Below are positions 1 to 64,000 of a stretch of DNA of 64,000 bases, piece after piece. The notes beneath the pieces were generated by a model. The model saw only the letters and a program-made list of their open reading frames with translations, ran no database searches and was not told where the DNA came from. This stretch comes from a virus. A program made the position numbers and the translations under genes. The stretch's first letter is position 1. Every line of letters begins with the position of its first letter. The stretch is from IMG/VR virus record IMGVR_UViG_3300045988_062793, one strand, 5' to 3'.

Positions 1-1
1 T

Positions 2-126
2 GTCGGGATGCTTGCGTGCAAATCTGAAGAGATTGCCAAATACGTATCAACCCAGTTTGGAAAGCTAGTGTTCGATGCTTGTTTTGCAAGACATTTCAAG
101 GGTGAAGAATTTGAATGGCTTGACTA
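2..126 (+). CDS. C-terminal fragment of a hypothetical protein (gene begins upstream of the window)
   Basis: Open frame from the window edge to TAA at 124-126; translation ...FARHFKGEEFEWLD. Confidence 0.35.
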
Positions 127-606
127 ATGAAAAAGTTCCTTGTAATTATGCTTGCTATGCTCTGGATGAGCGTAGCAGCATTTTCTCAGATAACTATATC
201 TCAGGAAGATTATGATAAGTTACCCAATGAGACTAGAACTCAAATTGAGAAGATAACAACAGAGAAGGCTATAAAGGGTGAAATCAAGGAAGTTTCTGAG
301 TATGCAAATCTTGGTAAGGAAATTGGCGTAGCAGTCAATGAAACCTTAAAAGCAGTTGAAGATTCAGCCATAAGAATAGCAGAATCCAACCTAGGACAAA
401 CAGCAATAACTATCGTAGTGTGGAAACTCCTCTATAAGGAGATAGCCGGAATTGTAGTAGGCACCATACTATTAGGAATATCAGTATTTATGCTACTAAC
501 TGGTAGAGGAAAACTATCCAAAAACGATGAAGATGCTGGAGGTTGGATAAGTGTGGTAGGAGGAGCTGTATTCTTTATATCTTCAATGATTTGTATATTT
601 GGCTGA
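127..606 (+). CDS. Membrane protein with N-terminal signal peptide and C-terminal TM helices, hypothetical
   Basis: ORF track; N-terminus MKKFLVIMLAMLWMSVAAFSQ is signal-peptide-like; hydrophobic C-terminal segments. Confidence 0.55.
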   Translation: MKKFLVIMLAMLWMSVAAFSQITISQEDYDKLPNETRTQIEKITTEKAIKGEIKEVSEYANLGKEIGVAVNETLKAVEDSAIRIAESNLGQTAITIVVWKLLYKEIAGIVVGTILLGISVFMLLTGRGKLSKNDEDAGGWISVVGGAVFFISSMICIFG

Positions 607-701
607 GGAGCAATCCAGGCTATAGGCTGGTGTATTCTAGCTATATTCTGTGTATTATTGCTTCTTGGTATGATTCTTAGCTAGTCATAAGACTAGCTTT
701 T

Positions 702-791
702 GGAAGGGTGGCAGAGTCAGGTTTATTGCAACGGTCTTGAAAACCGTCGGGCGGTAACACGTCCCCAGGGTTCGAATCCCTGTCCTTCCGC
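702..791 (+). tRNA. tRNA-Ser (anticodon TGA), class II with long variable arm
   Basis: Cloverleaf read by eye: acceptor ggaaggg/cccttcc-like, anticodon stem acggt/accgt with loop cttgaaa, long variable arm, T-loop ggttcgaatcc. Confidence 0.75.
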
Positions 792-796
792 AATAT

Positions 797-870
797 ATAG
801 GATTGGTGTTTAACGGTTAGCACGTCGGTCTCCAAAATCGAAAGTAAGGGTTCGAATCCTTTATCCTATG
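797..870 (+). tRNA. tRNA-Trp (anticodon CCA)
   Basis: Acceptor ataggat/atcctat, anticodon loop ctccaaa, T-arm aaggg ttcgaat ccttt. Confidence 0.7.
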
Positions 871-894
871 CTATTTTAATTAATAAATTAGATT

Positions 895-1125
895 ATGAAA
901 AAGTTAACAATCATTTCGTTAGGACTTATACTACTGTTCAGTTGTTCAGGTCCAACTAGTGAACTAGAAGCTACTAGGAATACCAGAGATGGGATTATTC
1001 CATTTGATGCTGCAGTTCACTTTAAATACAAGAATCATCAGTACATTAAATTCACCGAGGGAAATGGAAACTACAAGGTTGTAGGAGTGGTCCATGACCC
1101 AGATTGTAAATATTGTAAGAGATGA
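895..1125 (+). CDS. Small lipoprotein, hypothetical
   Basis: ORF track; N-terminus MKKLTIISLGLILLFSCSG has a lipobox-like LFSC motif. Confidence 0.55.
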   Translation: MKKLTIISLGLILLFSCSGPTSELEATRNTRDGIIPFDAAVHFKYKNHQYIKFTEGNGNYKVVGVVHDPDCKYCKR

Positions 1126-62001: not shown

Positions 62002-62126
62002 CGAATAAGGGGCTATAGTAGTGATGCCAAACCTGAGCCCCCTTGGCCTACTAACAGTGCCTACAGTCCAAGGCGTAATGCTGAGAGCGCAGTTAGGGCA
62101 TCATTTTTAATTAAATATAGTAGTGT

Positions 62127-62408
62127 ATGAAAAAATTATTTGGTTTATTGTTAATAGCAATTATTGCTTTAAGTTCTTGTGCAGACAGCAAGACTTTTGA
62201 GAGAGCTGATGGAACTAAGTTTGTAGCTGAACCTTATGGTTGGGCTAACTACCAATCTAATAAGATTGAAGGAGTAACATATGAAGCATGTTTTGAGAAC
62301 ATTGTTTGGGATATTGTTGCTATAGAAACCGTAATTGTTCCAGTATGGTTAACTGGCTGGGAACTGTACGAACCAGTTTCTTATACTGAACCAAGTGTTA
62401 CTAAGTAA
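62127..62408 (+). CDS. Small lipoprotein (93 aa)
   Basis: MKKLFGLLLIAIIALSSCADS is a lipoprotein signal with a lipobox. Confidence 0.5.
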   Translation: MKKLFGLLLIAIIALSSCADSKTFERADGTKFVAEPYGWANYQSNKIEGVTYEACFENIVWDIVAIETVIVPVWLTGWELYEPVSYTEPSVTK

Positions 62409-62555
62409 TTATGGATACTTATACACCAATGAGAGCTATGATTGTCTGTGCTAATGGCACAGGCGATTATATAAAGAAAGAGGATGCTATTAAGGCTTTG
62501 CAAAATATCTTTAAGGAAGATTCCTCTAAGATAATAGAAGCCTTTTTAAAAGAAT

Positions 62556-63038
62556 TTGATTAACATTATGAAGGTAATCTTTTTAGATATTGATGGAGTA
62601 TTGAATAGTAATGATTGGTATGTTAAGACTCGTGGTATCGGAGGATACAATGGAGGAGACGTTGACCCAAAATGTATCGAGCTTATAAATGACTTAATAG
62701 ATGCCACTGGTGCTAAAATAATTATGTCCTCATCATGGAGGTCTGACTATGAAAACTCTTGCGAGTATTTGTATGACAATGGCTTATACTGTGATGCAAT
62801 TATAGGAAAGACTCCTCACTTCTGTTATACTTGCCAGAATGATGACATCAGAAGTACACTTTGTAGAGGGAACGAAATACAATACGTATTAGAGTCAAAA
62901 GATATAACTAGCTACGTTATCTTCGATGACGATCAGGATATGCTATACTCCCAAAAGGATAATTTTATCCATATAGATTATATGCATGGTATTACGAAAG
63001 AACATATTGAGCAAGCAATTAAAATATTAAATAAATGA
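62556..63038 (+). CDS. HAD-superfamily hydrolase (phosphatase-like)
   Basis: Motif I VIFLDIDGVLN (DxDGV). Confidence 0.45.
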   Translation: MINIMKVIFLDIDGVLNSNDWYVKTRGIGGYNGGDVDPKCIELINDLIDATGAKIIMSSSWRSDYENSCEYLYDNGLYCDAIIGKTPHFCYTCQNDDIRSTLCRGNEIQYVLESKDITSYVIFDDDQDMLYSQKDNFIHIDYMHGITKEHIEQAIKILNK

Positions 63039-63259
63039 CTGTAGATTTTATAACAACAGAAGCATTAACTGATGACCAAATTCTTAAATGTTTTGGTGAG
63101 ACGTTACTATATGGGGAAGGTAAATTTATTGAAAATGACTTCTTTGAATCCATTGAAGGTTCTCTAGATGTCTATGGGTCATGCATGACAGAATCCTCAA
63201 AAGGAGAAGTTATTAAACAATTAAAGGTACTACTAACTAAACTAATAGAAGAATTATGA
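63035..63259 (+). CDS. Hypothetical protein (74 aa)
   Basis: ORF track. Confidence 0.4.
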   Translation: MTVDFITTEALTDDQILKCFGETLLYGEGKFIENDFFESIEGSLDVYGSCMTESSKGEVIKQLKVLLTKLIEEL

Positions 63260-63657
63260 GTAGTTATTTAAATATTTATGGTATTCCTAAAGAAGGAGAT
63301 AAGCCAATAGAAATTGTAAGTTTCAGTAGGTCTCATTGTGTATACAGAGCGATATGTGATGAAATAAATATTGCTTGGGCTGGAAACAGTGATGTCTATA
63401 CTAATCTCACCACTGAAATGATAGACCAGGTAGTCAGAAGCATAGAGGAAGACTTAAAGAGTTGCACGAGTAGGCTTCAAATCTATGAGAAGTACGCTTC
63501 GCAAAACTCTGAATATATCCATGAAATTATAAGCCTACAAGAGTATATTGAAGAGCTTAATACTACAAAGTCCTATTGTGAAATGATAGGCACAATAGTA
63601 ACGCAATGCTCTCTTTCTCTTTCTGGTTTTAGTAAAATTTGCTGTAATGTATCATGA
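63256..63657 (+). CDS. Hypothetical Cys-containing protein (133 aa)
   Basis: ORF track. Confidence 0.4.
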   Translation: MSSYLNIYGIPKEGDKPIEIVSFSRSHCVYRAICDEINIAWAGNSDVYTNLTTEMIDQVVRSIEEDLKSCTSRLQIYEKYASQNSEYIHEIISLQEYIEELNTTKSYCEMIGTIVTQCSLSLSGFSKICCNVS

Positions 63658-63848
63658 AATTTAAGTTAGAATTTACATTTGATATTTCTGACAGCTCACT
63701 GCTGATAGATGCTAACGATGGTAGAGATGAGGAATATACTAGCCTAGAAGATGTACCGGAGGATACTCTAATGGATGTAGTATATCATTATTTAGATGGG
63801 GTTGTAGAAGGTATGACTTATGATGAAGTAACAATTAAGAAATTATGA
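63654..63848 (+). CDS. Hypothetical acidic protein (64 aa)
   Basis: ORF track. Confidence 0.4.
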   Translation: MKFKLEFTFDISDSSLLIDANDGRDEEYTSLEDVPEDTLMDVVYHYLDGVVEGMTYDEVTIKKL

Positions 63849-64000
63849 AAAGGTTTTTAATTCACGTTAGTACTAGCTGGTGCGGAATGGATGATACATT
63901 CCGTGCTATGGCAGAAAATGATTATGAGTTGGACGAAATAGCTAACCAGTTAGCTTATGAAAACTTCCAATTCTATGATTGCGAGAATGATATTGCTGAG
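63845..64000 (+). CDS. N-terminal fragment of a hypothetical protein continuing past the window end
   Basis: ATG at 63845 with an open frame to the window edge. Confidence 0.35.
   Translation, partial: MKRFLIHVSTSWCGMDDTFRAMAENDYELDEIANQLAYENFQFYDCENDIAE

Follow-up and report, generated by a model that had tools for sequence, protein, structure and literature searches.

The window examined in this study is a stretch of 64,000 nucleotides from a phage (IMG/VR record IMGVR_UViG_3300045988_062793), in which the codon TAG is almost never used as a stop and accumulates inside a small number of nuclease genes. On the basis of PHROG annotation and coding coverage, the whole window (1..64000, plus strand) was assigned to the early arm of the phage, which measures approximately 85 kb in all. 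Its real genes are all located on the plus strand, and its GC content is approximately 0.36. A tRNA array (702..20216, plus strand), comprising 16 tRNAs detected by ARAGORN and two weak additional ones detected by Rfam, is followed by a replication and nucleotide-metabolism module, in which PHROG annotation identified an AAA ATPase, RNase H, NAMPT, PRPP synthase, two helicases, Sak4, a primase, an exonuclease VIII-like protein, NrdD, dUTPase, DNA ligase, RNA ligase, a sigma factor and PolA. Within the 64 kb, this annotation revealed no structural genes. The coding coverage of the window is 0.887 under code 11 versus 0.926 with TAG as a sense codon, and the window is readable throughout in the standard code, apart from the TAG-bearing genes described below.

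Stop codon usage was determined on a curated set of 108 genes, from which 105 early genes are left after removal of the three nuclease genes with internal TAG codons. The stops are TAA in 70 cases, TGA in 36 and TAG in two, in line with the preliminary description of this DNA, which had reported roughly 110 genes ending in TAA or TGA. As the plus strand contains 1261 TAG, 1957 TAA and 1561 TGA trinucleotides, approximately 26% of the stops would be expected to be TAG from composition; the probability of observing at most one TAG stop among 108 is then 1.7e-13, and 1.5e-4 if the TAG share of stops is assumed to be 10%. Only one well-supported gene had been described as ending in TAG. This holds for long genes, 14432..15106 being the sole one in the window, but a second TAG stop is present in a small open reading frame (ORF), 39432..39626. 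The long gene encodes 224 amino acids, shows no Pfam match and ends in the TAG at 15104, which is followed six codons later by an in-frame TAA (15122..15124; extended frame 14432..15124, plus strand) that overlaps the start of tRNA-Glu. The small ORF (39432..39662, plus strand), to which no function was assigned, likewise has a TAG stop, at 39624, with a back-up TAA 12 codons later, at 39660. Other early-arm genes with TAG, encoding a WDGH-domain protein and proteins of 211, 162 and 155 amino acids, contain it only in their last few codons. Here, too, a second stop backs up the TAG stop, an arrangement known from crAss-like phages of the Zeta group (PMC12386605).

Three window genes contain TAG as an internal codon, and all three belong to the group of four genes for endonucleases in the window (hypergeometric P = 2e-5). 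A free-standing GIY-YIG homing-endonuclease gene (10271..10906, plus strand; Pfam PF01541, 49.3 bits for a cut-off of 22.6) starts 19 nt past tRNA-Cys (10166..10251) and contains six TAG codons (10376, 10625, 10724, 10778, 10823 and 10865), which make up 6 of its 8 glutamine codons if TAG is counted as glutamine, and no in-frame TAA or TGA. With TAG read as Q, homing-endonuclease PHROG profiles cover its full length; the matches to C-terminal modules (HTH_23, HTH_28 and NUMOD1) are all under their Pfam cut-offs. In a single diverged relative sequence (73% identical), CAA stands opposite three of the TAG sites. The gene is missing in strain L078, and the region surrounding it varies among strains. 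The second gene is an endonuclease-like cassette of the T5orf172/MUG113 type, which belongs to the GIY-YIG superfamily (42567..43028, plus strand; Pfam T5orf172 40.4 bits for a cut-off of 20, MUG113 37.9 bits). Nine of its 13 glutamine codons are TAG (42624, 42735, 42813, 42834, 42897, 42909, 42930, 42987 and 43005), again with no TAA or TGA in frame. This cassette is a precise insertion of approximately 455 bp, 14 nt beyond the stop of gene 42202..42552; the empty site is found in strains L142, L143, L146 and L147, and all nine TAG codons are kept in six strains. The standard code breaks the GIY-YIG and T5orf172 frames into fragments of 87 and 70 amino acids, and the chance of encountering neither TAA nor TGA in random codons is 6.6e-6 over 211 codons and 1.7e-4 over 153.

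The third gene (39677..40222, plus strand) is a core gene whose predicted product is an Hjc-like nuclease or resolvase of the PD-(D/E)XK type, DNA-binding-like in its N-terminal region (phrog_244, 'Holliday junction resolvase', E=1.7e-9). One of its eight glutamine codons is TAG, at codon 4 (39686), and the next canonical start is located only at 39938, so that the full protein requires read-through of the TAG. Both the gene and its TAG are kept in 10 of 10 strains. The three nuclease genes thus hold 16 internal TAG codons; the preliminary description had counted 17 in three endonuclease frames, which is essentially right and is reached when the adjacent small ORF is included. Only 14-19 nt separate the TAG-bearing genes from the gene or tRNA before them, a gap that could hardly accommodate separate promoters, and these genes are probably co-transcribed with the early genes. 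Another TAG-rich frame, 8953..9657 (six TAG), was rejected as an artefact, as it overlaps the real genes 8811..9194 and 9316..9657 in other frames; further read-through frames containing TAG (2227..2838, 45880..46344 and others) are out-of-frame noise within long genes.

Additional nuclease genes with internal TAG codons were found in the relatives and flanks. A PDDEXK_5 endonuclease gene, located just upstream of the window in relatives (Pfam 83 bits), contains three, a second PDDEXK-like gene contains four, and a PD-(D/E)XK-like endonuclease gene contains seven. In the more distant relative L035, an HNH gene with two TAG codons is located beside or inside PolA, the match to which spans 3.2 kb. 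A LAGLIDADG gene is also inserted near the PNKP gene in L083.

The fourth endonuclease gene of the window is an HNH cassette (5148..5864, plus strand; insert approximately 5148..5855, 708 bp; PHROG HNH endonuclease, E=7.6e-25), which interrupts a tRNA-Met(CAT) gene in the anticodon stem. The cassette is missing in L076, L077, L078 and L080, in which tRNA-Met is intact (e.g. L076 14994..15069). In this region (window 5120..5900), the insert opens with ATTATGAGTCAG, to which CTGACTCATAAT in the downstream half of the tRNA is reverse-complementary. No Intron_gpI match was found at E<=0.1, the insert's last base is A and not G as for a group I intron, and the ORF extends into the 3' half of the tRNA, with its stop codon in the anticodon loop. 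The interrupted tRNA-Met may be either intron-containing or dead. A tRNA-like element is also present inside the insert (5166..5242, Rfam tRNA 30.4 bits). The GIY-YIG, T5orf172 and HNH cassettes are all mobile, as their presence varies between strains.

The remainder of the genome was read in relatives. IMG/VR and ENA/Logan hold many contigs that are 92-99.7% identical to the window, with complete genomes of approximately 183-192 kb and many contigs of 183-193 kb, whereas only short fragments of the species are present among GenBank phage records (MT836666, MT836281 and MT837398). Walking outward with chimeric protein queries assembled approximately 95% of one relative contig, 048622 (186,350 bp), with approximately 9-17 kb of the late arm not covered. 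This contig comprises a TAG-free early arm of approximately 85 kb, corresponding to the equivalent of the window plus its flanks, and a late arm of approximately 100 kb on the opposite strand, in which nearly every gene contains in-frame TAG, at approximately three per 100 codons. In the late arm of relatives, 19 TAG codons were found in the terminase large subunit (TerL; 787 amino acids), 28 in the portal protein (723 amino acids, matching phrog_6547), 6 and 23 in tail proteins, one in the candidate major head protein, 4-5 in a reverse transcriptase, and 46, 105-106, 90, 36 and 75 in giant ORFs of 1543, 3636, 3082, 2171 and 1681 amino acids, respectively. Late-arm coding coverage rises from 0.36-0.54 under code 11 to 0.94-1.0 when TAG is a sense codon. 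The TAG share of glutamine codons is 0/512 in the 105 early genes of the window and 103/197 in late genes. On long contigs, the gene caller of the collection read through TAG, yielding a GIY-YIG protein of 263 amino acids and a T5orf172 protein of 153 amino acids, and on two short contigs without the late arm it gave standard-code fragments. The reverse transcriptase of contig 060496 (L180 18417..19691) is a protein of 424 amino acids with a YADD motif and five in-frame TAG codons, located among tail genes, and it may belong to a diversity-generating retroelement.

The amino acid inserted at TAG was deduced from codon substitutions between strains. At non-identical orthologous positions, TAG in the reference late gene corresponds to CAA in 214 cases, CAG in 137 and other codons in 50 (351/401 glutamine), and TAG in the other strain corresponds to CAA in 260 cases, CAG in 147 and other codons in 10 (407/417 glutamine). 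Since late-gene TAG codons interchange almost exclusively with CAA and CAG, TAG is read here as glutamine (code 15). Two tRNAs with a CTA anticodon were identified in relatives, at L076 341..413 (minus strand; sup1) and 3165..3235 (plus strand; sup2), with Rfam tRNA scores of 66.3 and 43.9 bits. They are located 9.5 and 6.6 kb upstream of window position 1, which corresponds to position 9875 of the L076 locus. The tRNA most similar to sup1 is the phage tRNA-Gln (71%, versus 69% for tRNA-Thr); such similarity alone cannot settle the amino acid of the suppressor, which is settled by the codon substitutions. In the window itself, neither ARAGORN nor Rfam detected a tRNA with a CTA anticodon, the two additional Rfam tRNAs having UGC and UAU anticodons. 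The GGQ motif of class-I release factors was not detected in 7.7 Mb of the relatives' loci, a weak negative for a phage release factor 2. The codon distribution of the window had been likened in the preliminary description to that of phages that reassign TAG, with early and replication genes kept free of it, and late genes elsewhere in the genome and a suppressor tRNA had been named as the places to look. The likeness is borne out by the TAG-free early arms of the window and of contig 048622, the TAG-rich late genes and two CUA tRNAs of the relatives, and the interchange of TAG with CAA and CAG.

Two further features were observed around sup2. A strong match to the RAGATH-14 RNA (RF03145, 188 bits for a gathering score of 149) is present at L076 2942..3135 (plus strand), 30 nt upstream of sup2 and approximately 6.8 kb upstream of the start of the window. 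No mention of RAGATH-14 was found in the literature searched, and the RNA could conceivably help to process or regulate the suppressor. In addition, the sup2 anticodon is TTA (ochre type) in L079 (2708..2778) and CTA in other strains, and the stem differences are compensatory; since TAA is the main stop codon of the phage, a tRNA with a UUA anticodon is unexpected.

Building on the codon pattern, the suppressor tRNAs, the glutamine meaning of TAG and the mobility of the cassettes established above, we consider it highly probable that the window belongs to the early arm of a gut phage of the crAss-like type, approximately 185 kb in size, which uses two genetic codes and in which a set of nucleases is gated by TAG. 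The early arm would be written for the standard code of the host: TAG is avoided as a sense codon and hardly ever serves as a stop, and the rare genes that end in it have a TAA or TGA a few codons on. Once made and charged, the CUA suppressor tRNAs of the phage would read UAG as glutamine, and only after the onset of suppression could the opposite-strand arm of approximately 100 kb, encoding the terminase, portal, head, tail and giant virion proteins, be translated. The TAG-bearing nuclease genes of the early arm (GIY-YIG, T5orf172 and Hjc-like, with PDDEXK_5 upstream) are probably transcribed early, and their full-length products could not be made until suppression is active. Suppression appears to begin late, and it is plausible that the resulting delay in nuclease production is beneficial, acting as a safety switch, rather than tolerated.

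Several points weigh against this explanation. What is known of the suppressor tRNAs and of the late arm comes from the relatives and not from the window's own contig, and a late onset of suppression is a deduction from sequence. The sup2 gene is located on the early strand in the tRNA region, upstream of the array, and could consequently be made early. The assignment of the Hjc-like gene as a resolvase is weak, as no Pfam match was obtained and the match to the PDB Hjc structure 1hh1 has an E-value of 0.31. Finally, the HNH cassette contains no in-frame TAG, all six of its glutamine codons being CAA or CAG (the probability of this is 0.012 at the late-gene share of TAG and 6e-4 at that of the other cassettes). 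Not every endonuclease is gated, therefore, and nuclease gating is not universal in this phage.

The strongest form of the two-code explanation, in which the amber codons of the early arm are a selected translational lock and the code switch serves as a timer keeping DNA-cutting enzymes untranslated, is put forward tentatively, as it is somewhat more likely to be wrong than right. In that case, the phage or the cassettes themselves would hold back several homing-endonuclease families, together with a core resolvase needed only at packaging, and the HNH cassette, which lacks TAG, would have arrived recently or be otherwise regulated. Neutral drift is a serious competitor, to which we assign a substantial probability, although it falls short of an even chance. 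Genes that are not needed before the code switch could exchange CAG or CAA for TAG without any selection to delay nucleases, and selfish cassettes circulating among code-15 genomes would simply carry late-gene codon usage. Such drift explains the data equally well as a lock, which also counts against the proposed gating: the TAG share of the endonuclease cassettes (15/21, 71%) is not significantly above that of late genes (103/197, 52%; Fisher p = 0.11). The cassettes are also dispensable, their presence differing among strains, the HNH cassette manages without TAG, and some non-nuclease small ORFs near the point at which the arms diverge carry single TAG codons. Drift does not readily account, however, for the retention of the codon-4 TAG of the core Hjc-like gene in all 10 strains, for the confinement of the internal TAG codons of the window to endonucleases, or for the recurrence of the pattern in five different nuclease families.

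The timing itself would be different if suppression were active during most of the infection, with the suppressors made along with the other phage tRNAs. The standard code would then be needed by only the very first proteins, and the delay imposed on the nucleases would be small. The position of sup2 on the early strand is in agreement with this, as is the concentration-driven 'always on' model proposed from theta-ribozyme work (PMC10879173). Nevertheless, such a regime is unlikely, as it is difficult to reconcile with the complete absence of TAG from the glutamine codons of an arm of approximately 85 kb that includes typical middle-expression genes (replication genes, ligases and a sigma factor), and as sup1 heads a leftward unit that runs into the packaging genes. 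Much less likely still, indeed very unlikely, is that the interrupted endonuclease frames are decaying pseudogenes in which TAG is ordinary nonsense. Although the standard code yields only short fragments, and a second GIY-YIG copy in L076 looks degraded past residue 134, the window frames contain no TAA, TGA or frameshift, with the low chance probabilities given above, and their domain matches are intact. Their TAG codons persist from strain to strain, CAA taking their place in the one diverged sequence, and TAG is demonstrably a sense codon in the terminase and portal genes.

With regard to known phages, the only annotated relatives found by tblastn were the TerL (25-29%) and major head protein (23-26%) of Crassvirales. 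These low identities set the phage apart from the ICTV Crassvirales, and the nearest records (43-59% identical) are unannotated. We consider the phage to represent a deep crAss-like lineage whose size and gene features, rather than phylogeny, fit membership of the Zeta group, for which a genome range of 145-192 kb has been given (Yutin et al. 2021, PMC7886860; PMC12386605). Its host is probably a member of the Bacteroidales. Like the Zeta crAss-like phages, it is a human-gut phage with genomes of approximately 183-192 kb, many tRNAs including CUA suppressors, many homing endonucleases and PolA; in both, TAG encodes glutamine only in late genes, is rare as a stop and is then followed by another stop. 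The comparison with recoded crAss-like phages suggested in the preliminary description thus shows code-15 late genes and CUA tRNAs to be common to both, and proteomic evidence supports the use of code 15 by crAss-like phages (Peters et al. 2022, PMC9523058).

The juxtaposition of standard-code replication genes with recoded structural and lysis genes has been described by Borges et al. (bioRxiv 10.1101/2021.08.26.457843), who also reported a group I intron endonuclease with recoded stops among the early genes of TGA-recoded Agate phages and proposed that these stops prevent endonuclease production until late infection. The present phage resembles Agate in having selfish endonuclease genes with in-frame recoded stops inside a standard-code early region. 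It differs in that the recoded stop is TAG (glutamine) instead of TGA (tryptophan), in that the cassettes are free-standing instead of intron-encoded, and in that several families (GIY-YIG, T5orf172 and PDDEXK_5) as well as a core Hjc-like gene are concerned, with one HNH gene unrecoded. A GIY-YIG endonuclease gene within a tRNA gene cluster is also found in phage T4, in which SegB occupies such a position. The translation of endonucleases such as I-TevI is held until late in T4, although early transcripts cross the ORF, by late promoters and by RNA structures that hide the ribosome-binding site. In the present phage, it would be the genetic code itself that blocks translation.

Several other features of the early arm were observed. 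A tRNA-like gene at 11978..12050, with a UGC (alanine) anticodon and three mismatches in the acceptor stem, scores 39.5 bits with Rfam, was missed by ARAGORN and resembles the 'tRNA-OTHER' features of Vibrio phages. Two ORF-free stretches of approximately 450 bp each (13897..14332 and 21308..21781) may be structured RNAs, and a sub-threshold match to alpha-type transfer-messenger RNA is present at 13944..14128 (23.8 bits for a gathering score of 50), just upstream of tRNA-Thr. No intron or ribozyme was found in the tRNA region by an Rfam search at E<=0.1. In window 58434..59279 and 56 to 57 kb and in L081 10904..15466, the early arm also encodes a sigma-70-type factor of its own, Sequestin- and Tad2-like proteins, a CCA-adding/poly(A) polymerase-like enzyme, PNKP, RNA ligase and Thg1. 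Beside the large tRNA set, this has the look of a complete kit for the repair and maturation of tRNAs. PolA comprises 729 amino acids in the window (59812..62001) versus 812 in some strains (L082, L083 and L086, approximately 5967..8405).

The recoding of late genes with TAG and the idea that recoding delays endonucleases have already been published, and this phage is a clear example of a described phenomenon: a clean, statistically strong case of a genome written in two codes. What is new is the breadth, with free-standing cassettes of several nuclease families and a core resolvase-like gene involved, which extends the single observation of an Agate intron endonuclease to several nuclease families and adds no new principle. 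The lineage is very common in human gut metagenomes, one window protein being indexed in more than 2,500 assembly-collection blocks, and annotation in the standard code shatters approximately 100 kb of its late genes and hides its nuclease genes. The idea of a code switch as a timer for toxic enzymes would thereby become testable in one abundant phage.

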